A program made the position numbers and the translations under genes. Positions 12,550-42,907 of a DNA stretch of 64,000 bases are shown one piece after another; within the stretch, counting starts at the first letter, position 1; each line of letters begins with the position of its first letter. This stretch comes from Ignavibacteriota bacterium. Its GTDB lineage: Bacteria > Bacteroidota > Ignavibacteria > UBA10030. Under the pieces are notes generated by a model. It searched no databases. It was given only the letters and a program-made list of their open reading frames with translations, and had not been told where the DNA came from. Location of the stretch: the NCBI GenBank assembly GCA_003162695.1, contig PMML01000046.1, positions 32,512-96,511 on the forward strand. The letters run 5' to 3'.

Positions 12550-12551
12550 AG

Positions 12552-14651: not shown

Positions 14652-14670
14652 AAATATAGGAGTCGATTTT

Positions 14671-14832: not shown

Positions 14833-14869
14833 ACGGAGCAAGCAGCATTTATAGAATGGATCATAAAAT

Positions 14870-15451: not shown

Positions 15452-15464
15452 CCAAAAAGCGTGT

Positions 15465-15734
15465 ATGAAAAGAAAATATCGCAGCGACGATTCTGGAATT
15501 TTCAGCGCATTTCTACTTATTCTTCTGTGCTGCATTTTATTTGCTTTCGTTTTCCGTTCACGCTTGTTCCCGTCTCAGCAGGCGGTGTGGAAAATGGAGT
15601 CTCCGACCGATCCGAGTCAGATTGATACAATCGCTGCTCGAATTCAAAAGCTTGAAACTGGTATTCGCTTCTTTTCAATCGATCCTAAAAAAGCCGTATG
15701 GAAAAGCACGAATTTGACGGATTCGGCAAAATAA
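15465..15734 (+). CDS. Hypothetical small membrane protein between kdpC and kdpD
   Basis: The internal start MKRKYRS... of ORF 15423..15734 is followed by one TM segment (IFSAFLLILLCCILFAFVF). No homology was recognised, so it may not be expressed. Confidence 0.35.
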   Translation: MKRKYRSDDSGIFSAFLLILLCCILFAFVFRSRLFPSQQAVWKMESPTDPSQIDTIAARIQKLETGIRFFSIDPKKAVWKSTNLTDSAK

Positions 15735-15853
15735 AGCAAATAACGGCTTTTTCACCTCCTTTTCAAACGGCAGAAAAGTTCTCCGGCGGAAGAAATTTGA
15801 CAGGAATTTTGATATTTTGAATTATTAGAAAGAAGGATAACCAAAGTATATCC

Positions 15854-18526
15854 ATGCAGGAATTTGACGAAACCCGACCCGATCCCGATGCGCTGCTCAA
15901 CGCTTTGAAAAAAGAAGAAGCGCATTTCCGGCGCGGCAAGTTGAAAATTTTTTTCGGTATGTGTGCCGGTGCAGGGAAGACGTACGATATGCTCAAGTCT
16001 GCCCACGAAGCACAATCGAAAAAAATCGACGTTGTTGTCGGTTACATAGAAACACATAAAAGGCCGGAAACGGAAGCGTTGATTGACGGTTTGATAGTCA
16101 TACCGAGAAAGAAGCTAGAGTACCGCGGTGTATCGCTTGAAGAAATGGATCTGGACGCAATTCTTGAACGCAAGCCGAAGATCGTACTGGTCGACGAACT
16201 TGCACACACGAATGTGCCGGGGAGCCGTCATACCAGACGATATCAGGATGTTCTTGAACTCCTCGATAACGGTATCGATGTCTTCACGACACTGAATGTT
16301 CAGCATATTGAAAGCAGGGCTGAAACCGTGGCGCAGATCACCGGTTCGATCGTCCGCGAAACCGTTCCCGATTCGATTCTTGAGCAGGCCGATGAGGTCG
16401 AACTCATCGATATCTCACCGGAAGAATTGTTAAAACGGCTTGCAGAGGGAAAAGTCTACACGCCGGAAAGATCCATGCATGCGGCGCAGAATTTTTTTCG
16501 CAAGGGGAACCTGACCGCACTGCGTGAAATGTCTTTGCGCATGACTGCAGAACGCGTCGATCACCAGTTGCGCGATTACATGCAATCAAAGCGAATAACC
16601 GATACATGGAAATCGGGACAGCGGATGATGGTCGGTATCAGCCCGAGTCCGTCGACGATTTCGGTGATTCGCTGGGCGCGGCGTATGGCGTATACCATGG
16701 ATGCGACATGGATCGCGGTCTATGTTGAATCGTCCAAAGCGCTAAGCGATGAAGAAAAAAAACAGCTCAACAACAATATCAAGCTTGCCGGCGAACTCGG
16801 GGCGGAAATTGTAACGACTGCGGACGAACATATTGCACGCGCTTTGATCCGGGTTGCACGGCAGCAAAACGTCACGCAGATTCTGGTCGGAAAAACACGC
16901 CGCCGGTATCCGTTTATGCCGACGCTTCTCGATGAGATCATTGAAAACAGCGGCGATCTCGATGTTTATGCGGTAGGGGGTGACACAACTGAAGGAACTA
17001 TAAAACGGAAAATCGTCATTCCTAAAATTCGTTCCAGTTTGTCGCAATATATTCTTGCTGCAACGGCCGTCTTTCTTGTCGTCATGGCCTGCTATCCGTT
17101 CACGAATTATTTCGGATATCAGACTGTTGCATTAATTCTCCTGTTTACGGTCGTTCTGCTTCCGCTTGTGTTCGATGTCGGTCCCGTACTTCTGGCCGCG
17201 ACGTTGAGCGCCTTGTTGTGGGATTATTTCTTTATCCCGCCGCAGTTCACGATTCTGATCGCTTTACCTCAGGATTATCTTTTCCTTGCAGCGTATTTTG
17301 TCATTGCGGCGGTCACGGGCGTGCTGACAGCACGAATACGGGCGCGGGAGCAGGTAGTACGGCTGCGGGAAGAACATTCCACTGCGCTTTTTACATTGAC
17401 CAAACATTTGATTGCAACAAAAACACAGGATGAAGTCGCGGAAGCGGCGATAAAAAATGTCTCGTCTTTCTTCAATTCCGATGTTGCGATCTTTCTCAGT
17501 CAGCCGGACGGAGATATTTTTACGGCAGCTCACCCGCACAGCACCTATGCGGTGAACGGAAAAGAATTCGGTGTCGCGGCGTGGACGTACTGGAACGAAA
17601 AGAAAGCAGGAAAATTCACCGATACGCTGCCGGCTACAACTGCGACATACTATCCTGTTTCCGGCCCCCGTTATCCCTTAGGAGTTATCGGCGTTCAGAC
17701 GAAGAACGGAAAACAGTTCAGCATCGATCAGGAGTCACTTCTGCAAAATTTTATAGCCCAGATCGCTTCAACGCTCGAACGCGAACAACTGAGCGAACTC
17801 GCCAAACGCACGGTGGTGTATGCAGAGTCGGAAAAGCTTTATAAAACGCTCTTCAATTCCATATCCCATGAATTGCGGACACCGATTGCGGCGATTGTCA
17901 GCGCATCCGAAGGAATGTTGACCTTGCCGGAAATGAACAGCAGCGCTCTGGGGAAAACGCTGACAAATGAAATTCATACCGCGGCGGAACGACTTAACCG
18001 GCTCGTCGAGAATCTCCTTGATATGACACGTCTTGAATCGGGACAGCTTGCGCCAAAAAAAGATTGGTGCGATGTACGGGATATCATTCAGGCTTCCTTA
18101 AAAAAGCTGCAGGCGGAACTTTCACAGCATGTCGTAACGATCAATGTGGCAGAAGATATGCCGCTTGTACAGCTTGATTTCGGCTTGATCGAGCAGGTCT
18201 GTACAAATCTTTTGCACAATGCATCGCTCTATACGCCTCCGGGAACGGTTATTGCGATTGATGCATCGATATATGAAAACGAACTGCTGTTGACGATTCA
18301 TGACAATGGCCCGGGATTTCCGGCAGATGCTCAGAAAAGAATTTTTGATAAATTCTATCGTGTACCTGGAACGCGAACCGGAGGAACCGGACTCGGCCTT
18401 TCGATTGTGCGCGGATTCGTTGAGGCGCACAAAGGCACAATCACGGCGTCGAATAAACCGTCCGGCGGAGCTCAATTCGTTATCCGCATTCCGGTAGAGG
18501 TTCAACAGCCGATGGAAATACAATAA
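15854..18526 (+). CDS. kdpD: Sensor histidine kinase KdpD
   Basis: 890 aa. The N-terminal KdpD domain (GMCAGAGKTYDML) is followed by a Usp-like region, 4 TM helices, a GAF-like region, a HisKA domain (ISHELRTP) and an HATPase_c domain (DNGPGFP...GGTGLGLSIV). Confidence 0.9.
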   Translation: MQEFDETRPDPDALLNALKKEEAHFRRGKLKIFFGMCAGAGKTYDMLKSAHEAQSKKIDVVVGYIETHKRPETEALIDGLIVIPRKKLEYRGVSLEEMDLDAILERKPKIVLVDELAHTNVPGSRHTRRYQDVLELLDNGIDVFTTLNVQHIESRAETVAQITGSIVRETVPDSILEQADEVELIDISPEELLKRLAEGKVYTPERSMHAAQNFFRKGNLTALREMSLRMTAERVDHQLRDYMQSKRITDTWKSGQRMMVGISPSPSTISVIRWARRMAYTMDATWIAVYVESSKALSDEEKKQLNNNIKLAGELGAEIVTTADEHIARALIRVARQQNVTQILVGKTRRRYPFMPTLLDEIIENSGDLDVYAVGGDTTEGTIKRKIVIPKIRSSLSQYILAATAVFLVVMACYPFTNYFGYQTVALILLFTVVLLPLVFDVGPVLLAATLSALLWDYFFIPPQFTILIALPQDYLFLAAYFVIAAVTGVLTARIRAREQVVRLREEHSTALFTLTKHLIATKTQDEVAEAAIKNVSSFFNSDVAIFLSQPDGDIFTAAHPHSTYAVNGKEFGVAAWTYWNEKKAGKFTDTLPATTATYYPVSGPRYPLGVIGVQTKNGKQFSIDQESLLQNFIAQIASTLEREQLSELAKRTVVYAESEKLYKTLFNSISHELRTPIAAIVSASEGMLTLPEMNSSALGKTLTNEIHTAAERLNRLVENLLDMTRLESGQLAPKKDWCDVRDIIQASLKKLQAELSQHVVTINVAEDMPLVQLDFGLIEQVCTNLLHNASLYTPPGTVIAIDASIYENELLLTIHDNGPGFPADAQKRIFDKFYRVPGTRTGGTGLGLSIVRGFVEAHKGTITASNKPSGGAQFVIRIPVEVQQPMEIQ

Positions 18527-18533
18527 AAATTCT

Positions 18534-19232
18534 ATGCCGCCTATCAAGGAAGAGATATTGGTAATTGACGATGAAGCGCAGATGCGCCGTCTGCTCAGCG
18601 TGACACTGGAATCCGCAGGGTACAGCGTAACGCTTGCAGAAAATGCGGCAGAGGGAATCCGTAACGCAGAGACCCATCGCTACGAAGCCATCGTTCTGGA
18701 TCTGGGACTGCCCGATTCCGACGGGATCGATGTTTTAAAAAAAATCCGGCAATGGGCTGTGTATCCGATTATTATTCTTTCGGTTCGATCTTCTGAGAAC
18801 GGTATTATTGAAGCGCTCGATGCCGGTGCAAATGATTACCTGACGAAGCCGTTCCGCAGCGGTGAATTGCTGGCGAGAATTCGATCGGCTCTTCGATTGT
18901 ACACGACATCGCCAGGCGGGTCGAAATTTTTCTTTTCCGGAATCGAAGTCGATCTCGAAATGCGCGTTGTGCGGAAACGAGGAGAAGTTGTTAAACTGAC
19001 GCCGACTGAATTTTCTTTGCTTTCATTGTTTATTCACAATGCCGGCAAGGTTTTGACGCATAATTATATTCTGCAGCAGGTCTGGGGACCGAAGTTCGAA
19101 GGGGAATCGCAGTACACCCGCGTATATGTCGGTCAGTTGCGAAAAAAACTCGAAGAAAATCCAAATAATCCTTCATTTTTTGTAACAGAGTCGGGGATCG
19201 GCTACCGATTTACCCTGGAGAATGAAAAATAG
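18534..19232 (+). CDS. kdpE: OmpR-family response regulator KdpE
   Basis: 232 aa. A receiver domain (ILVIDDEAQ..., D54-like in AIVLDLGLPD) is followed by a winged-helix trans_reg_C domain. The gene lies 8 nt downstream of kdpD. Confidence 0.85.
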   Translation: MPPIKEEILVIDDEAQMRRLLSVTLESAGYSVTLAENAAEGIRNAETHRYEAIVLDLGLPDSDGIDVLKKIRQWAVYPIIILSVRSSENGIIEALDAGANDYLTKPFRSGELLARIRSALRLYTTSPGGSKFFFSGIEVDLEMRVVRKRGEVVKLTPTEFSLLSLFIHNAGKVLTHNYILQQVWGPKFEGESQYTRVYVGQLRKKLEENPNNPSFFVTESGIGYRFTLENEK

Positions 19233-22978: not shown

Positions 22979-24409
22979 TTAGTGCGTATAGAGTGCGATC
23001 ATTCGCTCGATTGCAGCCGAGCAAACCGGATCATAATCGACCGGATTTAATGCGAACATTTTGCAGTCGATCGACGGGCGATACATTCCTCTGGACATGT
23101 ATCCGGCTCCTTCAAAGGCGCCGACTTTGCCGGACCATTGGGAATCCTGGAGAATATTTCTCGATTGTTGCAGCAGTGATTCACGCTTCTGGTAGTAATC
23201 GGGAGCCAGACGGTCGAGTTGACCGCGAAGGGCTTCGATACTGTCGTATTCCGACTTTTTCCAAAGTGTTGGAAGAGGAACACTTTTTGACACGAATTGT
23301 TTCCATTTTAAATTTTCGGATCTATTCATGCGGGTAATGTTCGGTTCCCAGGGTTCGACCCCCTTCTGATAAAAATCGTTGTATGACACCTGTGAGCCAT
23401 AATATTCATCCGCCAGTCCTCCGAAACAATGTCCGAATTCATGTACATAAACATAATCACGTTCCCATTCCTGTCCCGGCTGAACTGCTTTTGTAAAACA
23501 TGTCGTATAGAGGTTGAAAATGCCGCCGCCGCCGTACCTGTTGTCGTTTACGAGGATTGTAATAAAATCATATGGTACAATACCGGCGATATCACGCAGC
23601 ACACGGTTTTCCTCGGTCAGGATATAGCGGATAGAGCCGAATGTGTTATACGATGTTCCGAGTGCCGTGTTTTTCCAGATATTTTGATCAGGCTTATCGA
23701 TGCCGGAATCTTCGGATACGACTTCCAACGCCCTGACATTGAAATCTTCTTTGTGTTTTTTGAAAGGCTGATACGAAAAGAGTGTTTCAGTAAAGTGTTG
23801 CGCATCGTTCCGGAATTTTTCCATATCGTCCTTCGTATAACCGTCGCCGACGATAAGAATGTCCACCTTTTTCTCGACTGGACCGTTTATCATAACGTCG
23901 AATTCCTTGAACGGAGAAGTGTGTTTTTTCCGGTTGACGGCAGTCGGATCGTTCGGATCGATGACGACAGAAAACATCTCCCGAAATGCCATCATTTCTC
24001 CTGCGGCAACGAATTTATCCCGGCGGAAAAATGCAGCCATAACTTTTCTTCTGGGAAATGGAAAACGGACGGTTTCATGGAAAGTCTTCCACGTTCCATT
24101 GATAGATTCATCCGTGGTCTGCCATTCGTTAAAGAGGGTTGAATAACCGCGCGAATAGAGAAGCATTCCTGTTTGTAGGTCGCTAATCGTGACAAAGCTG
24201 TCGCCGAGATTTAACGTATCAAGAAGGTTATTTATACTGCCGGGCCATGCGGATTCCTCATAGACTTTATCCAGAGTGATATACTCCTTTTCTTTCGTGC
24301 CGATGTGATAATAATCCACACGCATCGTAGTTTTAAGGAAAAAGGCATCATAAGTCTGGCCAAAGAGCGGCCATGAAAAGATAATACAAAGAACGAACAG
24401 CCTTTTCAT
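22979..24409 (-). CDS. Secreted zinc metallopeptidase, M64 (IgA peptidase)-like
   Basis: The N-terminal signal is MKRLFVLCIIFSWPLFG. The HEFGHCFGGLADEYY motif (HExxH ... D) matches the M64 family signature. An N-terminal M64_N-like region is present. Confidence 0.6.
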   Translation of the reverse strand: MKRLFVLCIIFSWPLFGQTYDAFFLKTTMRVDYYHIGTKEKEYITLDKVYEESAWPGSINNLLDTLNLGDSFVTISDLQTGMLLYSRGYSTLFNEWQTTDESINGTWKTFHETVRFPFPRRKVMAAFFRRDKFVAAGEMMAFREMFSVVIDPNDPTAVNRKKHTSPFKEFDVMINGPVEKKVDILIVGDGYTKDDMEKFRNDAQHFTETLFSYQPFKKHKEDFNVRALEVVSEDSGIDKPDQNIWKNTALGTSYNTFGSIRYILTEENRVLRDIAGIVPYDFITILVNDNRYGGGGIFNLYTTCFTKAVQPGQEWERDYVYVHEFGHCFGGLADEYYGSQVSYNDFYQKGVEPWEPNITRMNRSENLKWKQFVSKSVPLPTLWKKSEYDSIEALRGQLDRLAPDYYQKRESLLQQSRNILQDSQWSGKVGAFEGAGYMSRGMYRPSIDCKMFALNPVDYDPVCSAAIERMIALYTH

Positions 24410-24665: not shown

Positions 24666-27077
24666 ATGGAGTTCAAAACTATATTCCGGATGGTTGTTGC
24701 ACTGCTCTGCTGGGCGGGCATTGCATCGGCGCAGCAAGCGCCTTATATCGAACAACAGCCGCCGGTAGAGGTGCTCAACGCTTCGATCTATCAATGTGCA
24801 TTTTCCAGCAGCACAAACCTTTTTTGTTTTGTCGGAAGCAATAACAGCTTAAAGATTGTCGATGCCTCCACATTGAAGGAAAGAATTATGATTCCTTCTA
24901 TTACCTCGAAAATTGAAGCGCTTTCCTTTTCTAAATCGGGCCAATACCTCGCCGTGGGCACTCAAGACGGGAAAGTAACAATAATGAATATGGCTTCCGG
25001 GGCAGTTGTGTCCACTTTCTCTCCTCATGAAAACGGTATTGTTTCCCTTGCATTCCAGGACGAAAGCTGGGTCTTTTCAGCCGGAGGCGATAAGACTGTC
25101 GTGATTTCGGAATCGGCAAACGGTAATGATCTGGCAAAGCTCTCCAATTTCTCAGAAGATATTACAGGAATGACGATCGCTCCGTCAGGAAAATATTTTG
25201 CCGTCTGCACTTATATGGGAGCTGTTCAGATCTATACTGTTACGCAGCAAAAAATTGTACAAACGCTTACTGATGCCAAAGAAAAGATTAACGTACTGTT
25301 TTATACTCCTGATGTAAAATTATTGATTGCAGGAACTGCTCTTGGCGGTCTTTGTGCATGGGATGCACAAACGTATATTCTTAAAGCAAAATGGAACGAT
25401 CAAAAAGGCAGAATTTGGTCGGCCACCGTAGATCCTAAAGGACGGTGGCTGGTAACGGCAGCTTCAGACAGTACAATTCATTTTTATGATCTTGCAAAAC
25501 TCTCACCGATGCGGTTTATCAAAGAGCAAGGCTGTGCCCCGACCTCTGTTACGTTTGTGAACGACGAAACACTGATTGTCGGAACAAGCAAAGGGACAGT
25601 CGAACGATGGAAGGTCTCGGCAGCGCCTCCCGATACAACCCCCCCGTCGATTGTTATCACACAGCCTGCGAATACCACAGAACAATCCCCGATGAAGTTC
25701 TTTGGCGACGAATCGAGTGTGAGCGGCTTTGCCTACGATGATTCCGGAATCAAAGAGCTGTCGGTAGATGGAGTGCCGCTCAAGCTGGATCCGTATACGC
25801 CTCCGGATTCCTTAAAAATCCCTGCATCCATGAAATCGATTAAATTTTCTGCAGCCGTCAAGCTCGAATCACCCGGACTGAATGTCGTTCAAATTACTGC
25901 AAAAGATTTGGTTGGCCACGTAACGATAACAAAGTGCTTTTTAAATAAACTATCCAAAGATCAAGCACTCGAAATTGTAACTCCTTCGAATAATGCTGAA
26001 ACAGATTTAATTTCGATTCCCATTCGATTTCACGCCTGGTTCGATGTCGGTTCATATTCCATCTCTGCCAACATGACCGATATTATCAGCGGTCAGGAAC
26101 CGAGTTTAAACGCGGCGAAGAATGATATCAATGAAACCGTACCACTGCTGGTCGGTTACAATCAGGTTCAACTGACGGTTGTCGATAAATCGGGAAATCA
26201 GTATGTCAAAACTCTCGGTGTTACACGAAAAGCGAATATAACATATAACACATCAGCACCGGCTGCTTCGGCTCAAAAATCGCGCGGAACCTCATCGGGA
26301 CCGCAGCATTGGGCTGTTGTCGTGGGGGTCTCAGAATATCAGAGTTCCGGAATTCCAAGCCTGAAATATGCAGATAAAGATGCCGCTGCAATAGCTGATT
26401 TTCTGCGGAAACCCGAGGGAGGCGGATATGATTCGGATCATATCCGTGTTCTGCTAAACAAAGATGCGACCCTTACCAATGTGAAGGATGCGTTGATCAA
26501 TTTTCTTGCGCAGGCAATCGACATAGACATGGTCATGATATATTTTGCCGGCCATGGGGCGTCCGAACCGGCGCGTCCGCAGAATGTTTATTTGCTGACC
26601 ACCGACAGCGATCCGACTGCGCTGGGCACGACAGCGTTTCCCATGTGGGATATACAGACCGTTCTTGCACGATATATTAATGCGAAACGAGTTGTCGTAT
26701 TTGCCGATGCATGTCACAGCGGCAACATCAGCAGCAATTTTGCAACGCGGGGACTCAGTTCAACGGAAGATAACCTCGTCAACCAATATCTCACCGATCT
26801 TTCAAAGACGAAAGAAGGCATTGTTGTCTTTACAGCAAGCGCTGCAGGCGAGGTTTCTCAGGAATATCCTGAATTTGGGCATGGTGTCTTTTCATATTAT
26901 ATGCTGGAAGGGCTCGAAGGCAAAGCGGATTATAACAACGATTATACGGTAACGATTAACGAATTGATGCAATATGTTGAAGAACAGGTAAAACGTAAAA
27001 CTCACGGCGCGCAGAACCCGACGCGCAGTCAAACGGAATATGATAAAGAAATGACGGTATCAATTCTTCCACACTAA
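24666..27077 (+). CDS. Secreted WD40 beta-propeller protein fused to a C-terminal caspase-like (peptidase C14) domain
   Basis: A signal peptide (MEFKTIFRMVVALLCWAGIASAQQ) is followed by WD40-like repeats. The C-terminal caspase domain is HWAVVVGVSEYQSS...YADKDAAAIADFL and carries the catalytic dyad motifs YFAGHGA (His) and FADACHSG (Cys). Confidence 0.8.
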   Translation: MEFKTIFRMVVALLCWAGIASAQQAPYIEQQPPVEVLNASIYQCAFSSSTNLFCFVGSNNSLKIVDASTLKERIMIPSITSKIEALSFSKSGQYLAVGTQDGKVTIMNMASGAVVSTFSPHENGIVSLAFQDESWVFSAGGDKTVVISESANGNDLAKLSNFSEDITGMTIAPSGKYFAVCTYMGAVQIYTVTQQKIVQTLTDAKEKINVLFYTPDVKLLIAGTALGGLCAWDAQTYILKAKWNDQKGRIWSATVDPKGRWLVTAASDSTIHFYDLAKLSPMRFIKEQGCAPTSVTFVNDETLIVGTSKGTVERWKVSAAPPDTTPPSIVITQPANTTEQSPMKFFGDESSVSGFAYDDSGIKELSVDGVPLKLDPYTPPDSLKIPASMKSIKFSAAVKLESPGLNVVQITAKDLVGHVTITKCFLNKLSKDQALEIVTPSNNAETDLISIPIRFHAWFDVGSYSISANMTDIISGQEPSLNAAKNDINETVPLLVGYNQVQLTVVDKSGNQYVKTLGVTRKANITYNTSAPAASAQKSRGTSSGPQHWAVVVGVSEYQSSGIPSLKYADKDAAAIADFLRKPEGGGYDSDHIRVLLNKDATLTNVKDALINFLAQAIDIDMVMIYFAGHGASEPARPQNVYLLTTDSDPTALGTTAFPMWDIQTVLARYINAKRVVVFADACHSGNISSNFATRGLSSTEDNLVNQYLTDLSKTKEGIVVFTASAAGEVSQEYPEFGHGVFSYYMLEGLEGKADYNNDYTVTINELMQYVEEQVKRKTHGAQNPTRSQTEYDKEMTVSILPH

Positions 27078-27094
27078 GAAAACGAGGAAAGAAT

Positions 27095-27796
27095 ATGCGC
27101 ACTACAATGGTTTGTCTTTTTCTTGCCGGTCTTTTTTTTCTGCCGGCACACAGCAAAGCTCAATCGAACACGCCTTCGGCGGCGGTACAACAGGATGTTC
27201 CTAATATCGACTTTCTATGGTCATTCGGAGCACTTATCGGAACCGATAAGAATTTGGTCAGCATAACCCATGATACCACGCTGAAAAGCGGCGAAGAAAT
27301 TAAAATGATGATACAGCTGAACAAAGAAAGTTTTGTCTATGTCGTGCATTATGATGCGCAGGGAGGTATCGATTTGTTGTTTCCTTACGAATTGGGTCAA
27401 TTCCAATCGGACGATTATATCCTTCAAAAAAATTACTATATCCGAAAAGGACGCACATGGATGGCATTGGATAAGAATCCTGGAAAAGAAGTGTTTTTCA
27501 TTATTGCGTCGACAGGACGGCAGCTGGATCTTGAACGGAAAATCAGCGAATGCCTTACCGCAACCGATGATGCGAAAAAGCAGACTCTGGCAGATAATGT
27601 TGTTGCCGAGATAAGGAATTTGCGGAAACAGTACACGTCATTCGCTGCTTTTGCAGAGAAACCGATCCCAATCGGAGGTAATATCCGCGATATCAAAAAT
27701 GCTCAGGAAACGCGGAGGATAGATGTTGCCGATCTTGCGATCGATATCATAGCAAAGAATTTTTACAGCAAGACGATTACCATTGACCATCAGTAA
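27095..27796 (+). CDS. Secreted DUF4384-like protein (caspase-associated)
   Basis: A signal peptide is present. The core LKSGEEIKMMIQLNKESFVYVVHYDAQGGIDLLFP fits the DUF4384 pattern (x-Y-x-Y-x...D..G.h.LLFP). The gene starts 18 nt after the caspase gene stop. Confidence 0.5.
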   Translation: MRTTMVCLFLAGLFFLPAHSKAQSNTPSAAVQQDVPNIDFLWSFGALIGTDKNLVSITHDTTLKSGEEIKMMIQLNKESFVYVVHYDAQGGIDLLFPYELGQFQSDDYILQKNYYIRKGRTWMALDKNPGKEVFFIIASTGRQLDLERKISECLTATDDAKKQTLADNVVAEIRNLRKQYTSFAAFAEKPIPIGGNIRDIKNAQETRRIDVADLAIDIIAKNFYSKTITIDHQ

Positions 27797-29738
27797 AACA
27801 CGAATGTGGAGGGACACGCTGATCATCAGCGTGTCCGCTCTTGCACTCGGGCACCTTTTCTTCTGGCTTCTTCCCGGAGTATTTCAAACCTGGAATGCGC
27901 ATGCGGTCGACCAGATGTTTGTGCTCCGCTCCCACTATTTTCCATCCCGTATTCCGTACGACAGCACAATCGTTCATGTGGATGAGACAGACAGCACGAA
28001 GCTGATGTTGACAACTTCCTACACGACGCGCAAACCGTATGCACAAATTGCCCGAAACCTCGGCGAGCTGAAAACAGCCGTGCAACTATGGGATTATGTT
28101 TTTCATTTCCCGCTTCCGGAAGAGGATTCTATATTTTTTGAAAGCAATAAACGCTCGGGGAACGCATATTTCGGAGTCGAGATTAATCTGAAAGATGAAC
28201 CGCCCAAAACAGTCGCTAAAAATCTTACGGCTGATGAAGAGTATTTGTCTAAAACAAAATGGCACGTTCATGTCGATGGAGATGCTTCTTCGCTGTATAT
28301 AGGCACAGATGCAATCAGTACCTTTGCGGCTTTTGCATCTTCTGCCCGAGGACTTGGATATGTAAACGTGCTCCCCGACAAGGATGGTGTCTTTCGCAAA
28401 GCGCCGTTGCTGGTGCGTTATGAAGACGGCTTTTATCCAAGTTTTCCTTTCCATGTCGTTTGTGACTATTTGCACGTTTCACCGGATCATATTATTCTTC
28501 GCCCCGGAACGAGCATTACGCTTCAGGGAGCGTACCGACCCGGCCAGGCACCGCACGATATCGTTATTCCGGTCGATGAACGCTGCAATTTGATCGTGAA
28601 TTTTGTCGGTCCATGGAATCGGATGCAGCATAATACAATGCTGCAAATTTATCATATCTCTGAAGATAGGGATGCTATGGAATTCGACTGGCAGCCGCGC
28701 TTCGAAGGAAAGATCGTTGTTGTTAACGAGACCTCGACCGGCGCATCGGACGTACAATCTGTGCCGACCGACAGCTGGTACCCGCTGGGAGGATTGCATG
28801 CGAATGTTATCAATACGATCCTTACGGAGAACTTTCTACATATAGTTGATCCGCGGCTCATGCTCGTTCTTGAACTTATACTTCTGGCTTTTATCGTTTT
28901 CTTTACGGTCCGGTTTTCCTCCCGCGGGCTGTGGTCCGGCGGATTGATCTTGATCATCGGATACGTCCTCTTTGCAATGACGGCATTTCTCTACGGAAAC
29001 CTGATTCTCAATATCATACGTCCCATTGGAATTTGTATTGTTGCCGTCTTCGGCGCACTCGCATACCGGTTTATAAACGAAGAGCGGGAAAAAGAATCGC
29101 TGCGTCAATCATTCGAATCCTATCTTCCGCCGTCGGTTGTCAAGCGTCAGCTTGCGCATCCGGAATCGGTGCTTGAAGTGCAGAAGAAGGAACTTACTAT
29201 TTTATTCAGCGATATTAAAAGTTTTACGACCTATTCATCGACGATGACGCCGGATCAGATACAGAAATTTTTGGCGGAATATTTTGAGGCGATGGTCGAT
29301 ATCGTCTTTCAATATGAAGGTACAGTCGATAAATATATCGGAGACGGGCTTATGGTTTTTTTCGGAGCTCCGGAACCGCAGCCCGATCATGCGGTGCGCT
29401 GTGTCCGTGCGGCGATCGATATGCAGAAAAAATGCCGCGAGCTGAAAGAGAAATGGGTCAAAGAGGGATTGTTCCCGCTGCGCATTCGTATCGGTGTCAA
29501 TACAGGGGAAGTCGTCGTCGGCAACATGGGCACGCCAAAAAAGCTTTCGTATACCGTGCTGGGCTCCGATGTCAATCTCGCCAACCGCTTGGAATCCAAT
29601 GCGCCGGTTGAAGGTATTATGATTTCCCGGCGGACCTACGACCTGATCAAGGATCAGATCCCTGCATTGCCGCACGAAAAAATTCTTGTCAAAGGACTCG
29701 ACACGCCGATCGAAGTGTACACCATTCCGGTAGAGTAA
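27783..29738 (+). CDS. CHASE2 sensor domain-containing class III adenylate/guanylate cyclase
   Basis: An N-terminal TM precedes a roughly 330-aa periplasmic CHASE2-like region and then 3 TM helices. The C-terminal CYC domain is FSDIKSFT...KYIGDGLMVFFGAP...NLANRLE. An alternative ATG at 27804 lies just after the upstream stop. Confidence 0.8.
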   Translation: MTISKTRMWRDTLIISVSALALGHLFFWLLPGVFQTWNAHAVDQMFVLRSHYFPSRIPYDSTIVHVDETDSTKLMLTTSYTTRKPYAQIARNLGELKTAVQLWDYVFHFPLPEEDSIFFESNKRSGNAYFGVEINLKDEPPKTVAKNLTADEEYLSKTKWHVHVDGDASSLYIGTDAISTFAAFASSARGLGYVNVLPDKDGVFRKAPLLVRYEDGFYPSFPFHVVCDYLHVSPDHIILRPGTSITLQGAYRPGQAPHDIVIPVDERCNLIVNFVGPWNRMQHNTMLQIYHISEDRDAMEFDWQPRFEGKIVVVNETSTGASDVQSVPTDSWYPLGGLHANVINTILTENFLHIVDPRLMLVLELILLAFIVFFTVRFSSRGLWSGGLILIIGYVLFAMTAFLYGNLILNIIRPIGICIVAVFGALAYRFINEEREKESLRQSFESYLPPSVVKRQLAHPESVLEVQKKELTILFSDIKSFTTYSSTMTPDQIQKFLAEYFEAMVDIVFQYEGTVDKYIGDGLMVFFGAPEPQPDHAVRCVRAAIDMQKKCRELKEKWVKEGLFPLRIRIGVNTGEVVVGNMGTPKKLSYTVLGSDVNLANRLESNAPVEGIMISRRTYDLIKDQIPALPHEKILVKGLDTPIEVYTIPVE

Positions 29739-29817: not shown

Positions 29818-29844
29818 AGAAACGCTATGGAAAACAGCGTTTCT
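29818..29844 (+). promoter_or_regulatory. Perfect 9-bp inverted repeat (AGAAACGCT-N9-AGCGTTTCT) enclosing the hpnC start codon
   Basis: The sequence reads agaaacgctATGgaaaacagcgtttct. The ATG at 29827 sits in the 9-nt loop. It is a candidate mRNA hairpin or a dimeric-regulator operator. Confidence 0.4.
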
Positions 29845-30681
29845 TTAAAGGCGGCTTATACGCATTGCCGGCGATTGACACGGGAACATTATGAAAATTT
29901 TCCTGTGGCTTCAATGCTGCTGCCGAAAAATATCCGCAAACATGTTGCAGCGATCTATGCGTTTGCCCGGACGGCGGATGATTATGCGGATGAAGCGGGT
30001 TACGCATCGGATGAACGTCTTGCAAAACTTCAGGAATGGGAAGAAAAGCTTCTCGCCTGTAAGGGTGGACTTGTCGAAGATCCGGTATTTCTCGCTCTCG
30101 GCGATACGATACGCGCATTCGATATCCCTATTGAATTGTTTCAGTCTCTCTTGAAGGCTTTTCGTTCCGATGTAACAGTGACCCGTTATGCAACATTGAA
30201 CGATCTTTTGGACTATTGCCGCAATTCTGCAAATCCGGTCGGACGGCTTGTTCTGCTTCTTTTTGGCTATCGTAATGAGCAGCTATTTGCTTATTCCGAT
30301 TCAATTTGCACAGCGCTTCAGTTGACAAATTTTTGGCAGGATATTTCTGTCGATATACAAAAGGGCAGGCTGTATTTTCCACTCGAAGATATCGATCGTT
30401 TCGGCTGTACGGAAAAAAATTTGCTCGGCGGAGTGTTTAACGAAGCAACGAAAGCTTTAATTCGTTTTGAAACGGCACGGACAGAAGAATTCTTTAATCA
30501 AGGAAAACCGTTGTTTTCAGCAGTAGATGCCAGATTGCGGTGGGAACTTAAATTTACCTGGAACGGCGGAATGCGGATTTTAGAGAAAATTAGGGCATTG
30601 AACTTCAATTCGGTGCACCAGCGCCCCAAACTTATACCGACCGACAAGGCGGGACTTCTCTTTCGTTCTTTTTTCTTGTAA
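29827..30681 (+). CDS. hpnC: Hydroxysqualene synthase (squalene/phytoene synthase family)
   Basis: The trans-IPPS_HH fold, the N-terminal YENFPVASMLLP motif and the two Asp-rich regions (ARTADDYADE; DLLDY-like) match HpnC-type enzymes. Confidence 0.75.
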   Translation: MENSVSLKAAYTHCRRLTREHYENFPVASMLLPKNIRKHVAAIYAFARTADDYADEAGYASDERLAKLQEWEEKLLACKGGLVEDPVFLALGDTIRAFDIPIELFQSLLKAFRSDVTVTRYATLNDLLDYCRNSANPVGRLVLLLFGYRNEQLFAYSDSICTALQLTNFWQDISVDIQKGRLYFPLEDIDRFGCTEKNLLGGVFNEATKALIRFETARTEEFFNQGKPLFSAVDARLRWELKFTWNGGMRILEKIRALNFNSVHQRPKLIPTDKAGLLFRSFFL

Positions 30682-30690
30682 ATTGTTATA

Positions 30691-31575
30691 ATGGAAAACG
30701 CCGCAATATATTTTTCAGAATTCGAACAGAATAAAAAAAGCAATTTTTATTTTTCGTTTTTCAGCCTGCCGCATTTACAGCGGGATGCCATCGAAACAAT
30801 ATATGCTTTTTGCCGCTTGACGGACGATATTGTCGACGAGGGCAGCAACGAAAAAGAACAGCATGCAAAACTTCTGCAATGGACGGATGAATTGAAGCGC
30901 GCCCTATACGGTGTTTCCCGCTATTCCCTGCTCAATAAACTCGTTTCCATCATTCACCGGTTCAATATTCCGGTCGAACATTTCTATGAATTGATCAAGG
31001 GCATGGAAATGGACTTGACGCAAAAACGGTATGGAACATTCGGAGAACTCGAACTGTATTGCTATCGGGTTGCATCGACTGTCGGTCTTATCTGTGCAGA
31101 GGTATTCGGGTATCATCAGGAAAAGACAAAAGAATATGCCGTAAACCTCGGAAAGGCGCTTCAGCTGACGAACATCCTTCGGGATATCAAAGACGACGCC
31201 AAGCGGGGACGGATTTATTTGCCGCTGGAAGATTTGCGGAGATTCGGCTATACGGAAGAGGAACTGCTGCGGTTTGAAATCAACGATAAATTCCGGGCAT
31301 TGATGAAATTCGAATGTTCCCGCGCACGCGACTATTTTAGAAAAGCGAAAGCTTCTTTAGCGGAAGAGGATAAAGTCCTTTTTACTGCAGCGCGCACGAT
31401 GGGAAATATTTACTATCTGCTTCTTCTCAGAATTGAAAATTCCGGGTATGATGTCTTTTCCAGGCGCATACGTCTTTCTTCTCCTCTCAAGCTACTGGTT
31501 GCAATGGTTTTACGCCTGCGGAATAATTTTCCCAAAAATTTTCATCGGTATGTAAGAAAAGAACTGCCTGCTTAG
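30691..31575 (+). CDS. hpnD: Presqualene diphosphate synthase (squalene/phytoene synthase family)
   Basis: The sequences SNFYFSFFSLP...YAFCRLTDDIVDE and NILRDIKDDAKRGRIYLP match HpnD-type enzymes. The gene lies tandem to and 9 nt downstream of hpnC. Confidence 0.75.
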   Translation: MENAAIYFSEFEQNKKSNFYFSFFSLPHLQRDAIETIYAFCRLTDDIVDEGSNEKEQHAKLLQWTDELKRALYGVSRYSLLNKLVSIIHRFNIPVEHFYELIKGMEMDLTQKRYGTFGELELYCYRVASTVGLICAEVFGYHQEKTKEYAVNLGKALQLTNILRDIKDDAKRGRIYLPLEDLRRFGYTEEELLRFEINDKFRALMKFECSRARDYFRKAKASLAEEDKVLFTAARTMGNIYYLLLLRIENSGYDVFSRRIRLSSPLKLLVAMVLRLRNNFPKNFHRYVRKELPA

Positions 31576-35383: not shown

Positions 35384-35835
35384 GAAATGTTTAAGATCGT
35401 TTTCTGCAATATACCGAACAAGAAAAGGAAGTTCAATCATGTACATATAAAAAGACCGGATATTATGTAAAAACATCAAGAAAATCAGTTAAACCGGTAC
35501 GGATACCGCTCTATCCGCCTGTTCGGGGATGTATCAATTTGAAATTGATTTTTTTGCATTCAATGTGTTTTGCTCTCCGAATATGGGTTCTTTTCATAGA
35601 TGGGTGTTATGATTTTGGAAAGGTTTTCGCTGCGGCCTGCGGTTCTGACAGGTTTAATGTCAATGCAGTAAGGCAATTTTAAAAGCCGGCATCGGTAAAA
35701 GAATTTATATATTGCCGGCTTGTAGCTCGACGATAATTGAAAGGGGAAAGATCCGTCCGCAAGGCATGGGATTCTGTTGTATTGCATCTCGATCGATTTT
35801 CCGTTACTTTTCTTACCAACTTTGAAGGTTTGAGC

Positions 35836-36807
35836 ATGTCTAAAATAATAAAGACGCGTTCCGGTAAATCCATGGAGCCGGCAATATCGGTTGTTATTCC
35901 CCTCATGAATGAAGAAGGATCGCTGGAAGAACTTTTTGGAAAAATTGCAAACGTGTTGAAACGAATGCAAACCAGCTATGAAATCGTTTTTATTGACGAT
36001 GGCAGTACGGATAGTTCGTTTGACATTCTTAAAGAACTACATCAAGAATTTCCATCAAATGTGAAAGTCATTCGTTTTCGCCGGAATTATGGAAAAGCCG
36101 CAGCATTAATGGCCGGATTCAAATCGGCACAGGGGAATGTGATCGTAACGATGGATGCTGATTTACAGGATGATCCTGAAGAAATTCCGCAGCTTGTCGA
36201 AATGCTGGGAAAAGAATGCGATCTTGTTTCAGGGTGGAAAAAAAGGCGGCAGGATTCGTTTCTCTATACGCTGCCGTCGAAGGCTGCAAATTTTATTACA
36301 GGCTGGCTGACGGGATTGCATATTCACGATCTGAATTGCGGATTGAAGGCATATAAAAAAGAAGTTGCCGTAGATTTAAAAATTTACGGGGATTTATATC
36401 GCTATATTCCGGTGCTGGTACATCTCATGGGTTTTAAAGTTAGTGAAAAACCGGTTCAACATTATCCGCGGAAATACGGGCAATCGAAATATACAATCGG
36501 AAAATTTCATCGCGGATTTCTCGATTTGCTTACCATTCTCTATACAGCCAAGTATTCCCGCCGACCGCTGCATCTTTTCGGTTTGTGGGGCTTGCTGTCG
36601 CTTTTTATTGGATCGGTAATTGACGGATGGCTCATTCTTGGCCGCATTTTTGGAGAGACTTCGCTCAGCAATCGTCCGCTCTTTATGATCGGTTTTCTTT
36701 TTGTCATTATCGGCATTCAATTTATATCAATCGGCCTGCTCGGGGAAATGATATCACGCAGCGAACGGAATGAACAGACCTATACGGTGCGAGAGGAACT
36801 TCGATAA
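35836..36807 (+). CDS. GT2 polyprenyl-phosphate glycosyltransferase (GtrB/ArnC/DPM1-like) with C-terminal TM helices
   Basis: The sequence ISVVIPLMNEEGSL...YEIVFIDDGSTDSS and the DAD motif (TMDADLQDDPEE) are present. Two C-terminal TM helices are present. The start is taken at the Met at 35836. Confidence 0.85.
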   Translation: MSKIIKTRSGKSMEPAISVVIPLMNEEGSLEELFGKIANVLKRMQTSYEIVFIDDGSTDSSFDILKELHQEFPSNVKVIRFRRNYGKAAALMAGFKSAQGNVIVTMDADLQDDPEEIPQLVEMLGKECDLVSGWKKRRQDSFLYTLPSKAANFITGWLTGLHIHDLNCGLKAYKKEVAVDLKIYGDLYRYIPVLVHLMGFKVSEKPVQHYPRKYGQSKYTIGKFHRGFLDLLTILYTAKYSRRPLHLFGLWGLLSLFIGSVIDGWLILGRIFGETSLSNRPLFMIGFLFVIIGIQFISIGLLGEMISRSERNEQTYTVREELR

Positions 36808-37157
36808 ATGCCGAAGTCTGCTGTGACACGTTCTTCTAAACGTCAAAATGTTTCGCCTGTCCAGCTTGTCTTCCCGAATATCTCATCAATGGAGGAACTC
36901 TATCGATCTTTGCGGCAGTCGCGCACAATATCTCTATTTTGGTGTGTTTGAAGCGAACATGCGTCCGCAATCTCAAAGATTATTGAATCCGTTGAATGCG
37001 CCGGGATGGTTGATACCGCTTACCTATACCGTAGATTCTTCAGTTGTTCTCTGCAGGGTATCCGCTTCAGGAGACCGTGCGCCTTCGGCGCAATAAAGAC
37101 ACTTTTTGTAATTTCAGCAATTATTATTGATCTTTTTTAAGATTTCATGGAGAGAGT

Positions 37158-38222
37158 ATGAAAGTAAAGAGTGATTGTCGTTTATTTAAAGGAGAAGTTC
37201 CCTGCCGCCCGCATAAAATAAAAGGCGTGCATTGTGAAAATTGTCCGGACTATGATGCGACGGATAAAAACATCCTGATTGTCAAGCTTGCAGCGATCGG
37301 TGACGTTATACGTACAACCCCGCTCCTACGTCGTATTAAAAAGGAATATCCCAAGTCAAAAATATGGTGGCTTACACGAACGCCGGAAATACTGCCTGCA
37401 GAAGTCGACGTGAAGCTTCCCTTTGTTTTAGAATCCATTATTGCATTGACAGAAACGCCTTTTTACCTTGCATTCAATCTTGACAAAGACCGTGAAGCCT
37501 GTGCGTTGATGAATAAAATTAAGGCTAAGAAAAAATTCGGCTACGACCTTGTCAACGGTATTTGTCATCCCTTGAATTCTGCAGCCGAGCGGAAATGGGA
37601 AACAGGATTGTTTGACGATGTCAACAAAGTGAATACCAGAAGCTATGTGGAAGAAATATTCGCAATAGCCGGATATGCCTTTTGCGGCGAACGGTATATG
37701 CTGCCGTTCTATGATTGGCAGGATAGACGATGGAAATTTGTAAAAGGGAAAAAAGTGGTGGGTCTTAACACAGGGTGCGGCGGCCGGTGGACCTCACGGC
37801 TCTGGCCTGAAACACACTGGGTTACACTTGCTGTATCGCTGAAGAAAAACGGCTATGAAGTGGTGCTCCTGGGCGGAGAACAGGAACACGAGAAGAATTT
37901 AAGACTGGCCAAAAAATCGAAAGCTCTATATTTCGGACATTATTCGCTGAACGGCTTTATCAATTTGATGAATCACTGCGATTTGGTGGTGACGGCTGTG
38001 AGCATGGCGATGCATTTGACAATCGGTTTGAATAAAAAAATTGTTCTCTTTAATAATATTTTTAATAAAAACGAATTCGAATTGTATGGTTTAGGCGAAA
38101 TATTGGAACCTGATTATGACTGCACCTGTTATTTCTCGCCGATATGTCCGAATAATTGCATGCAATATTTAAAACCGGAACGAGTTCTCGAAACTATAAA
38201 GAGATTGCTCCCGAAGAAATGA
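37158..38222 (+). CDS. GT9-family glycosyltransferase (heptosyltransferase-like) with Cys-rich N- and C-termini
   Basis: The GT9 motifs ILIVKLAAIGDVIRTTPLL and ..VVTAVSMAMHLTIGLNKKIVLF are present. The N-terminus has C-x8-C-x9-C-x2-C. The C-terminus is CTCYFSPICPNNC. Confidence 0.75.
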   Translation: MKVKSDCRLFKGEVPCRPHKIKGVHCENCPDYDATDKNILIVKLAAIGDVIRTTPLLRRIKKEYPKSKIWWLTRTPEILPAEVDVKLPFVLESIIALTETPFYLAFNLDKDREACALMNKIKAKKKFGYDLVNGICHPLNSAAERKWETGLFDDVNKVNTRSYVEEIFAIAGYAFCGERYMLPFYDWQDRRWKFVKGKKVVGLNTGCGGRWTSRLWPETHWVTLAVSLKKNGYEVVLLGGEQEHEKNLRLAKKSKALYFGHYSLNGFINLMNHCDLVVTAVSMAMHLTIGLNKKIVLFNNIFNKNEFELYGLGEILEPDYDCTCYFSPICPNNCMQYLKPERVLETIKRLLPKK

Positions 38223-39346
38223 AGATCCTTGTTCTCAGCACGGCCTATCCATGGCGCGGCGGCATTGCTCATTACATTGCACTGCTTGCAGGCCATCTAC
38301 AAAAGAATCATCGAGTAGATATTGTCACATTTACACGGCAATATCCGTTATTTCTTTTTCCCGGCAAAACTCAGAAAGAGTCTGGGGATCCGGGTATTGT
38401 TTTGCAGACAGAATCGATGGTCGACTCGATTAATCCGGTCAACTGGATCCTCACCGGATGGAAATTACGGAAGCGAAACTATGATGTCGTTGTTTTTAAA
38501 TACTGGCTTCCTTTCTTCGGGCCTTGTTTTGGAACAATATGCCGGTTGATCAAGTGGAGAAAAAAAACGAAAGTTATCGCTCTATGCGATAACGTGCTGC
38601 CTCATGAACACCGTCCGGGCGATTCAATATTTACAAAATATGCTTTTCATATTGTCGACGGATACGTTGTGCAATCTGAATCTGTAGAACAGGATTTATT
38701 GTCCTTTGTTAAGAATCCCTCCTATAAGCGTGTGATGCATCCGATTTACGAAAATTTCGGGGCTTCGATCTCAAAAATTGAAGCGCGAAAAGCATTGGGA
38801 TTTAAAGAAAACGACCGCATCATTCTTTTTTTTGGGTATATCAGAAAATATAAAGGCCTGGAACTCCTGCTTGAAGCGATGAAGACGATTAAGAAATCGA
38901 TGGATATTCATTTGCTGGTAGCGGGAGAATTTTATGATGATGAACTGCATTATCGTGACTATGTAAAAATAAACGATCTGAACAACTGCGTCCATTTTAT
39001 TTCGGAATATATTCCCAATGATCGTGTTCCATATATTTTCTCTGCAGCTGATTGCGTCGTGCTTCCGTATCGTTCGGCAACTCAAAGCGGTATCGTACAA
39101 ATTGCGTATAATTTTAATAAACCTGTCATTGTTACGGATGTCGGCGGGTTGGCGGAAACTGTATCGGACGGCATTTCCGGATTTGTGGTGCGTCCCGGAT
39201 CGCCTGAGGCGCTTGCCGGATCTATCGAGGCCTTCTACCGTGAAAAGAAGGAAGCTTCTTTTGTCGAAGGTGTAATAAAGGAAAAGGCGAAATATTCATG
39301 GGATACTCTGGTTAAAGCAATTGAAGCATTGGCAGAAAAATCGTGA
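38219..39346 (+). CDS. GT4-family glycosyltransferase (group 1)
   Basis: An ATGA overlap with the upstream stop is present. The start is MKILVLSTAYPWRGG. The C-terminal GT1 motif region is ...PYRSATQSGIVQIAYNFNKPVIVTDVGGLAE. Confidence 0.8.
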   Translation: MKILVLSTAYPWRGGIAHYIALLAGHLQKNHRVDIVTFTRQYPLFLFPGKTQKESGDPGIVLQTESMVDSINPVNWILTGWKLRKRNYDVVVFKYWLPFFGPCFGTICRLIKWRKKTKVIALCDNVLPHEHRPGDSIFTKYAFHIVDGYVVQSESVEQDLLSFVKNPSYKRVMHPIYENFGASISKIEARKALGFKENDRIILFFGYIRKYKGLELLLEAMKTIKKSMDIHLLVAGEFYDDELHYRDYVKINDLNNCVHFISEYIPNDRVPYIFSAADCVVLPYRSATQSGIVQIAYNFNKPVIVTDVGGLAETVSDGISGFVVRPGSPEALAGSIEAFYREKKEASFVEGVIKEKAKYSWDTLVKAIEALAEKS

Positions 39347-39362
39347 ACATTGATGCCTGGAG

Positions 39363-40634: not shown

Positions 40635-40711
40635 ACGGCTCTGGATTTGTGTGTTGCGGTACCGATCGCTATTCTCGATGAGTATATCGGGAATAACAGG
40701 ATAAAAACGCG

Positions 40712-41890: not shown

Positions 41891-41932
41891 ATGTGTAAGA
41901 AGTCTTTAAGATCCGTTTCATAAAAGTAATTT

Positions 41933-42850: not shown

Positions 42851-42907
42851 ATCATCTGTAATGGCGGCATCCTATTGTTTGTTTCCATGTCTTGAAGAGG
42901 AATATTC

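Follow-up and report, generated by a model that had tools for sequence, protein, structure and literature searches.

Results and Discussion

An exported caspase-fold protease, an exported protein of the DUF4384 family, and a CHASE2 receptor adenylate cyclase are encoded by three adjacent genes (genes 1, 2, and 3, respectively) in the 64,000-nucleotide stretch of DNA analyzed here, which comes from an uncultured bacterium of peat soil belonging to the Ignavibacteriota (contig PMML01000046.1 of assembly GCA_003162695.1, positions 32,512 to 96,511; hereafter the window). The trio is kept together in related genomes and behaves as a single conserved unit. The arrangement suggests an undescribed way to switch a bacterial receptor by protein cleavage outside the cytoplasm. 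In the three-component envelope signaling module proposed here, to which we give about even chances of being correct, the exported protease would act on the DUF4384 partner and so switch the CHASE2 cyclase.

CHASE2 is a widespread bacterial sensor domain whose ligands and activation mechanism are described as unknown in the literature consulted, and most discussion of bacterial caspase homologues treats them as cytoplasmic proteases of cell death or defense, with almost no known substrates. The triad is a defined three-protein system that makes both the input of CHASE2 and the substrates of orthocaspases testable, with the DUF4384 partner as candidate substrate, Arg198 of that partner as candidate site, and cAMP as an easy read-out. 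If true, the proposal would supply the first input mechanism for the CHASE2 domain and the first bacterial caspase homologue linked to second-messenger (cAMP) signaling rather than to cell death, and DUF4384 would be recast as a co-receptor or adaptor linking caspase-fold proteases to receptors. Should the model prove wrong, the module is still a well-delimited conserved operon of uncharacterized envelope proteins in the Ignavibacteriota and Desulfobacterota. It should be useful, and moderately surprising, to specialists in bacterial signaling and in caspase homologues.

Organization of the Three Genes

Three co-directional open reading frames (ORFs) appear in the ORF listing of the window at the positions collected in Table 1, and they are as tightly coupled as a preliminary description, made from the DNA letters, had stated. 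The gap between genes 1 and 2 is 17 nt rather than the 18 nt given there and holds a GAGGAAAG ribosome-binding-like site. The ATG codon at 27804 lies 7 nt past the stop codon of gene 2 and is most likely the start of gene 3, since the public gene calls choose it. Of the overlap or near-abutment suggested earlier for genes 2 and 3, the near-abutment is thus retained, and the overlap by way of the TTG at 27783 is less likely. Identical proteins are encoded in GCA_003155765 and on metagenome contigs from peat and fen, and the genome loci nearest to the window belong to metagenome-assembled genomes (MAGs) of Ignavibacteriota. A promoter and terminator scan gave counts within shuffle expectation with a consensus that does not suit this phylum.

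The Exported Protease

Gene 1 was searched against Pfam, and WD40 and beta-propeller families were matched at residues of about 28–320, followed by Peptidase_C14 (PF00656) at residues 548–794 with an E-value of 1.3e-20 and a score of 74.5 bits against a cutoff of 21.4. The same search confirmed the other domains that had been assigned by inspection, namely, DUF4384 in gene 2 and CHASE2 plus a cyclase in gene 3. The translation contains the motifs YFAGHGA (His630) and DACHSG (Cys683). When a profile of the caspase clade was compared with the PDB, the best matches were the metacaspases AtMC4, Yca1, TbMCA2, and AtMC9 (E-values of 3.5e-13 to 1e-7), with GSU0716 and MALT1 next. In this comparison His630 and Cys683 coincide with the catalytic pair of AtMC4 and Yca1, and C-to-A mutant structures match at the same column; at the level of sequence, the His/Cys dyad reported previously is therefore intact.

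The full-length search for homologues of gene 1 was dominated by WD40 proteins. It provided 13 full-length orthologues (P0087–P0099), of which 11 were used in alignment A3. His630, Cys683, Asp572, and Asp681 are invariant in this alignment and in A5, an alignment of the domain only, and the two aspartates occupy the alignment positions of the S1 residues Asp95 and Asp211 of TbMCA2. In TbMCA2, the two S1 aspartates confer specificity for Arg/Lys (PMC6426788). Because both acidic S1 residues are kept, the protease encoded by gene 1 is predicted to cleave after Arg or Lys.

Sequence identity among distant orthologues of gene 1 is 75% for the caspase domain, 33% for the first immunoglobulin (Ig)-like domain, and 29% for the propeller, which is the least conserved part. 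The values of 75% for the caspase domain and 29% for the propeller fit a conserved active enzyme joined to a diversifying recognition module, and the WD40 propeller is a putative sensor or targeting module. In the AlphaFold (AF2) model, the propeller and both Ig-like sandwiches are predicted with confidence. The two Ig-like domains are absent from the preliminary description; matches to Big_7/Glucodextran_B in related caspases are their equivalents. Arg540, in the linker that precedes the caspase domain, might speculatively be an autoprocessing site. The NCBIfam model NF047832 (caspase_w_EACC1) matches the caspase domain with an E-value of 2.4e-33 and a score of 115.4 bits, below its cutoff of 140.

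The N-termini of the proteins from genes 1 and 2 each contain a basic n-region, a hydrophobic stretch of fewer than 19 residues, and an A-x-A-type cleavage site (ASA/QQ and SKA/QS, respectively), and this pattern is kept in the orthologues. No full-length transmembrane (TM) segment was found in either protein by a hydropathy scan. These N-termini are of the signal-peptide type and point to export of both proteins, as had been proposed.

The DUF4384 Partner

The DUF4384 family (PF14326) matches residues 63–140 of gene 2 with an E-value of 3.8e-12 and a score of 46.6 bits against a cutoff of 27, and it is found in 86 of 86 homologues. DUF4384 alone was returned by a Pfam scan of gene 2 at an E-value of 0.01 or below, with no FecR (PF04773) or LysM. 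The stand-alone family comprises 209 clusters at 50% identity (E-value of 1e-30 or below). The AF2 model has a mean predicted local distance difference test (pLDDT) score of 80 and consists of an Ig-like sandwich, a helical hairpin at residues 144–179, and C-terminal strands that complete the sandwich; the whole is a generic Ig-like binding fold. The loop at residues 194–206 has a pLDDT below 50 and is modeled as disordered. Arg198 is invariant in every full-length family member aligned at this position, across three phyla, and together with the loop it is a candidate cleavage or contact site.

The last 11–12 residues of gene 2, NF[YF]S[KR]T[FI]TI[DE]H[QKR] (27740–27793), hardly vary across phyla and are always located at the very C-terminus. 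In the AF2 model they make up the final strand of the sandwich. A sequence search of the PDB found no structure for either DUF4384 or CHASE2.

The CHASE2 Receptor Cyclase

Gene 3 is matched by CHASE2 (PF05226) with 106.6 bits against a cutoff of 26.3 and by Guanylate_cyc (PF00211) with 113.6 bits. The hydropathy profile contains TM segments at residues 5–23, 351–369, 378–396, and 400–418. With one N-terminal segment followed by three at residues 351–418, the CHASE2 domain would be periplasmic and the cyclase domain cytoplasmic. The same layout of one N-terminal TM segment, CHASE2, three C-terminal TM segments, and an output domain is described for CHASE2 proteins (PMC3501461, PMC5192318). The best PDB match for the cyclase domain is Pseudomonas aeruginosa CyaB (3R5G), with an E-value of 3e-42. 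Asp470, Asp514, Lys510, Thr584, Asn591, and Arg595 are invariant in 22 of 22 orthologues, and the same Lys and Thr appear at the aligned positions of CyaB. We take the catalytic residues of class III cyclases to be two metal-binding aspartates, a substrate-defining Lys and Asp/Thr, and a transition-state Asn and Arg. All of these are kept in gene 3, and the product is probably cAMP. CHASE2 was also considered as a degenerate caspase fold and as a relative of DUF4384; both ideas were rejected with hhalign probabilities of 0.1%.

Table 1. Features of the three-gene module, in window coordinates (aa, amino acids)
Feature	Position	Strand	Basis
Gene 1, WD40 propeller, two Ig-like domains, and C14 (metacaspase-like) protease, 803 aa	24666..27077	+	ORF, translation, Pfam, AF2 model, orthologue alignment A3
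Predicted Sec signal peptide, aa 1-22, cleavage ASA/QQ	24666..24731	+	Sequence inspection, hydropathy, orthologue N-termini
Seven-bladed WD40 beta-propeller, aa 27-318	24744..25619	+	Pfam WD40/beta-propeller families; AF2 pLDDT >90
Two Ig-like beta-sandwich domains, aa 328-521	25647..26228	+	AF2 secondary structure, pLDDT ~80-90
Low-confidence linker, aa 522-547, with nearly invariant Arg540	26229..26306	+	AF2 pLDDT <50; alignment A3
Peptidase_C14 caspase-fold domain, aa 548-803; His630 (26553-26555), Cys683 (26712-26714), Asp572, Asp681	26307..27074	+	Pfam PF00656, PDB profile search, alignments A3 and A5
Gene 2, exported DUF4384-family partner (export predicted), 233 aa; signal peptide aa 1-22, cleavage SKA/QS	27095..27796	+	ORF, translation, Pfam, AF2 pLDDT 80
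DUF4384 Ig-like beta-sandwich core, aa 63-140	27281..27514	+	
Motif AE[KR]PxxIxGxxR ending at Arg198 (27686-27688), then disordered variable loop (aa 194-206)	27665..27724	+	Alignment; AF2 pLDDT <50
Gene 3, CHASE2 receptor adenylate cyclase, 644 aa (alternative TTG start 27783)	27804..29738	+	ORF, translation, Pfam, public gene calls
Predicted periplasmic CHASE2 domain, aa 24-350, flanked by TM1 (aa 5-23) and TM2-4 (aa 351-418, nt 28854-29057)	27873..28853	+	Pfam PF05226, hydropathy
Predicted cytoplasmic class III cyclase domain, aa 455-644	29166..29735	+	Pfam PF00211; best PDB match P. aeruginosa CyaB 3R5G

Conservation of the Module across Genomes

The gene 2 family was scanned in one genome per GTDB species, and domains were mapped on all ORFs of the 69 loci obtained. 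These loci belong to the Ignavibacteriota (also labeled Bacteroidota in the records), the Desulfobacterota, and one Hyphomicrobiales MAG. In 41/41 Ignavibacteriota-type loci and in 18/20 Desulfobacterota loci, the next gene after that for DUF4384 encodes the CHASE2 protein. The gene for the WD40-Ig-caspase lies directly upstream in 40 of the 41 Ignavibacteriota-type loci, and the triad of this lineage is kept where the upstream neighbors are entirely different. Within the fetched flanks, a C14 caspase is present at 9 of 23 Desulfobacterota loci, and the upstream genes in this phylum are often unrelated (ArsP, TrkA, MatE, CCG). The expectation that the triad would be conserved thus holds for the Ignavibacteriota, whereas elsewhere it holds for the DUF4384–CHASE2 pair. 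The DUF4384 partner and the CHASE2 receptor are the invariant core, and the caspase-fold protease is a recurrent modular third component. The protease is fixed in the Ignavibacteriota lineage and, given its presence at only these nine Desulfobacterota loci, facultative outside it.

In long-read MAG assemblies (MFD isolates), the CHASE2 cyclase gene (L013, L020) or both the DUF4384 and cyclase genes (L059) are split into two ORFs. The split ORFs may be frameshift sequencing errors or real pseudogenes.

The reciprocal search was conducted on metagenome loci with the caspase domain as the query. Where the caspase is at least 62% identical to that of the window, the DUF4384 partner is directly downstream in 15/15 loci and the CHASE2 gene is also found in 14; the fifteenth locus (L086) ends inside the DUF4384 gene. 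Among 65 more distant Ig-C14 loci, a CHASE2 cyclase adjoins nine, and a DUF4384-Ig-C14 fusion is encoded at two. Since CHASE2 genes are few per genome, we infer that the adjacency in 9/65 loci is far above chance. The two fusions (L096:3653-5299 and L097:7796-9454) each stand beside a second caspase gene, and DUF4384 sits where the window protein has WD40. The homologue search with the CHASE2 region covered the closest 120 proteins, and more distant CHASE2 contexts were surveyed through loci from the other searches.

Variant Modules

The caspase component takes several forms in the Desulfobacterota: TPR-Ig-C14, a lipoprotein X-Ig-C14 downstream of the receptor, four tandem paralogues, and WD40-C14. 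All of these forms keep the His and Cys residues, and every linked C14 caspase, in other phyla too, has a signal peptide or a lipobox. The C-terminal output domain of the CHASE2 protein is a SpoIIE/PP2C phosphatase, not a cyclase, at three loci, and WD40-C14 occurs together with CHASE2-PP2C. The coupling of extracytoplasmic proteolysis to cAMP that had been suggested earlier is partly supported by the recurrence of the module with exported caspases across phyla, but cAMP is one output only, given that the PP2C form exists.

Four tandem exported Ig-C14 paralogues, each with intact His and Cys, are found directly before the DUF4384–CHASE2 pair in a Desulfobacterales MAG (L077:278-7761). Two tandem DUF4384 paralogues followed by a CHASE2-SpoIIE (PP2C) receptor and then a lipoprotein Ig-C14 caspase are found at L072:7081-12916 and L075:2505-8297. 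This last variant occurs in a delta-proteobacterial MAG and in a Hyphomicrobiales MAG, which suggests horizontal spread. A gene for TPR-CHAT, CHAT being another caspase-fold protease, precedes the DUF4384–CHASE2-cyclase pair in an 8-Mb genome (L080:3485-7206). The 5′ end of this gene abuts a DDE transposase gene and has neither a start codon nor a signal peptide, so that the gene may have been truncated by insertion of an insertion sequence.

Proposed Mechanism and Alternatives

In the mechanism considered here, the periplasmic DUF4384 protein would work with the periplasmic CHASE2 domain of the four-helix receptor, the cytoplasmic cyclase of which would make cAMP. The exported metacaspase-like protease, predicted to be specific for Arg/Lys, would be held on the WD40 propeller and the two Ig-like domains. 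The propeller would first recognize a cue or target in the envelope or outside the cell. The protease would then cleave the DUF4384 partner, most plausibly at Arg198, where the disordered loop starts, or, less likely, the CHASE2 ectodomain. The state of the receptor, and hence the synthesis of cAMP, would change as a result, whichever the direction of regulation may be. The sequence data show the domains, the intact catalytic residues, the export signals, the topology, and the co-conservation of the genes; that the proteins touch, which of them is cut and where, how the output shifts, and what the cue is are inferred. The CpxP/DegP/CpxA system of Escherichia coli and the ExoR/ExoS-ChvI system of Sinorhizobium are precedents in which proteolysis of a periplasmic accessory protein sets the output of a sensor. 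By analogy with these, and with all three parts predicted to face the periplasm, binding of DUF4384 to CHASE2 combined with cleavage is the most economical model. The logic alone is shared, as an analogy and not as homology: the protein families are unrelated, and the output here is a cyclase or a PP2C phosphatase rather than a kinase. In its most specific form, in which an extracytoplasmic caspase triggered by WD40 clips a dedicated DUF4384 co-receptor at the invariant Arg and so switches the CHASE2 receptor, the proposal is tentative and we would sooner doubt it than accept it.

Several observations weigh against the proposed mechanism. Many DUF4384–CHASE2 pairs of the Desulfobacterota have no caspase within 8 kb, and Arg198 is invariant there too; this residue may therefore serve in folding or in binding to CHASE2 rather than in cleavage, and a dedicated protease next door is evidently not needed for the core pair to work. 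The C-terminal strands that follow the loop of gene 2 are packed into the beta-sandwich with high confidence in the AF2 model. Because these strands are integral to the fold, cleavage would not simply free a peptide. The caspase domain of gene 1 (residues 548–803) is modeled at a pLDDT of only 25–58, too low to judge the geometry of the active site, a consequence of an alignment that is shallow and almost invariant. Finally, the scan of window ORFs at positions 1–50288 yielded no cAMP effector (CRP or another cNMP-binding gene), the ORFs at 51100–63960 lying outside the scan.

The caspase could instead process an external or envelope protein, with the DUF4384 protein, itself uncleaved, presenting the peptide to CHASE2, so that the module would sense proteins or peptides. 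The CHASE2 cyclases of Sinorhizobium meliloti, which answer a plant protein signal through an outer-membrane protein (PMC13001267), are consistent with such a scheme. So are the fast evolution of the WD40 propeller, as expected for recognition of variable targets, the occurrence of the DUF4384–CHASE2 pair without a neighboring protease, and the generic Ig-like binding fold of gene 2. No ligand is known, however, and the invariant Arg198 motif beside the disordered loop is at least as consistent with a place on the partner that is processed or contacted. The literature, in addition, ties DUF4384 to protease substrates or fusions (bioRxiv 10.1101/2022.08.17.504292). Presentation of a peptide by an intact partner is, on balance, unlikely.

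Cleavage of the DUF4384 partner must also be weighed against the opposite order of control, in which DUF4384 would be a periplasmic inhibitor, chaperone, or anchor of the protease and the cyclase would control the expression of nutritional or envelope-remodeling proteolysis. The direct fusions of DUF4384 to Ig-C14 caspases described above would suit this role, as would the frequent fusion of DUF4384 to proteases in general (bioRxiv 10.1101/2022.08.17.504292) and the M64 peptidase gene that is the divergent neighbor of the triad in the window. Across phyla, however, the DUF4384 gene tracks the CHASE2 gene and not the protease, the pair persists without a nearby caspase and with a PP2C output, and the M64 neighbor is kept in the closest relatives only. 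Such a reversal of roles is quite improbable.

A part in defense or programmed cell death, with the caspase as death effector and the cyclase as a Pycsar-like or CBASS-like signal generator, is very improbable, although a stress or defense response had been offered in the preliminary description. Generic PADLOC models for "caspase" and for a PycC-like cyclase do match, and the caspase domain resembles the NCBIfam family "caspase, EACC1-associated type", but the score for the latter (115 against 140) falls short of the cutoff. The predicted export of the caspase would prevent it from reaching cytoplasmic targets. Of the Pycsar pairing (PycC with an adjacent TM or TIR effector), only the cyclase domain is matched: the cyclase has the Lys/Thr pair of P. 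aeruginosa CyaB, its best solved match, and its neighbors are DUF4384 and hpnC/D-like genes, with no Pycsar effector gene nearby. The wider neighborhood is one of housekeeping genes (kdp, hpnC/D-like, ksgA, and lipopolysaccharide genes) in long-range conserved synteny, not a defense island.

That three functionally unrelated genes are merely held together locally is the least probable of all: the hpnC/D-like genes downstream are syntenic as well in 28/38 Ignavibacteriota loci, so that conserved order alone is weak evidence within one clade, but the three families are relinked in the Desulfobacterota, the Hyphomicrobiales MAG, and the 8-Mb genome with differing order, architecture, and output, the link recurs as domain fusions (DUF4384-Ig-C14 here; PMC3501461; PMC7475262), and the gaps are only 7 and 17 nt.

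Relation to Known Systems

The protease shares the caspase-hemoglobinase fold (as judged by Pfam and the PDB profile search), the His-Cys dyad, and two acidic S1 residues with the orthocaspases and metacaspases (Peptidase C14B), such as Microcystis MaOC1, AtMC4, Yca1, and TbMCA2. No other accessory domain is as common as WD40 in prokaryotic caspase homologues (PMC3501461). Unlike known orthocaspases, gene 1 carries a predicted Sec signal peptide, has its WD40 propeller at the N-terminus followed by two Ig-like domains and a C-terminal protease, and is tied to a DUF4384 and CHASE2-cyclase pair. The characterized orthocaspases are discussed as cytoplasmic cell-death or stress proteases.

The pairing of CHASE2 with an adenylate/guanylate cyclase in gene 3 is that of S. 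meliloti CyaD1, CyaD2, and CyaK. The CHASE2 cyclases of this organism answer an extracytoplasmic protein signal and need the envelope protein NsrA (PMC13001267). The accessory in S. meliloti is an outer-membrane beta-barrel, whereas here it is an exported DUF4384 protein and a caspase; a proteolytic step is undescribed for S. meliloti. A small exported accessory is also encoded directly upstream of a CHASE2 receptor in the Burkholderia "BiofilmReg" operon, which consists of a response regulator, a periplasmic LysM/FecR protein, and a CHASE2 histidine kinase whose ligand is unknown (PMC5192318). That operon differs in its accessory (FecR/LysM and not DUF4384), in its kinase output, and in having no protease gene.

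The type III-E "Craspase" (Cas7-11, the TPR-CHAT protein Csx29, and Csx30) resembles the triad in that a caspase-fold protease with a repeat module acts on a regulator, and at L080 a TPR-CHAT gene stands in for the C14 gene. Some of the Csx30 proteins that serve as substrates of the caspase-like Csx29 end in DUF4384, a domain "often fused to protease domains" (bioRxiv 10.1101/2022.08.17.504292). Craspase is cytoplasmic and RNA-guided with a sigma/anti-sigma output, whereas the triad is predicted to be extracytoplasmic and has no CRISPR components. The EACC1/EACC2 caspase conflict systems (Aravind group) contain a related caspase domain, to whose family model the window protein scores below the cutoff, and EACC2-caspase proteins can bear a C-terminal CHASE2 domain (PMC8195603). 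In the triad, CHASE2 is on a separate protein and the protease is predicted to be exported; no EACC or TRADD-N component was found in the three proteins with Pfam or NCBIfam.

Fusions of a caspase with WD40, with CHASE2, and with DUF4384 are known in cyanobacterial orthocaspases (PMC3501461, PMC7475262). All of the parts and their pairwise links had been published. In the literature searched, coverage of which is incomplete, no description was found of a conserved operon for an exported propeller-Ig-caspase, a stand-alone DUF4384 family with an invariant Arg motif, and a CHASE2 cyclase/phosphatase, nor was a proteolysis-based model of CHASE2 activation. The earlier impression that no system of this type had been described agrees with this result.

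Genomic Context

The window is ordinary chromosome, with surA-like, moxR, kdpABC-kdpDE, FKBP, M64 peptidase (divergent), paired hpnC/D-like, and ksgA genes and a glycosyltransferase cluster. No mobile-element genes and no defense island were seen among the ORFs scanned (positions 1–50288). Directly after the CHASE2 cyclase gene, and co-directional with it, are two tandem SQS_PSY genes (hpnC/hpnD-like squalene/phytoene synthases; 29827–31575, + strand). This order is kept in 28 of the 38 Ignavibacteriota-type loci with enough downstream sequence (loci L011–L059). It may reflect co-transcription or a link of the module to squalene/hopanoid lipid synthesis, or clade synteny only. A secreted-type Peptidase_M64 (IgA-peptidase-like) gene (22979–24409, − strand) is divergent from gene 1, with which it shares an intergenic region of 256 nt. 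The upstream M64/SDR genes, this one among them, are conserved only in the nearest relatives.

Farther upstream, a gene for a MoxR-type AAA ATPase precedes large ORFs (723, 1135, and 206 aa) that have either no Pfam match or a match to DUF4175 only (1365–8912, + strand); the cluster resembles MoxR/Bat-like envelope clusters. A PIF1-like helicase gene is located at 9050–10531 (− strand). The potassium pump operon kdpA-kdpB-kdpC is complete and, together with the genes for the sensor kinase KdpD and the response regulator KdpE that come after it, occupies 10855–19232 (+ strand). Downstream of the triad, at about 35700–53000, is a cluster of glycosyltransferase, heptosyltransferase, flippase-like, and YfhO-like genes in which several ORFs have no Pfam match. 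This cluster is probably a lipopolysaccharide or polysaccharide locus. Its G+C content is 0.38–0.42, compared with about 0.46–0.50 elsewhere in the window, and it was possibly acquired horizontally.

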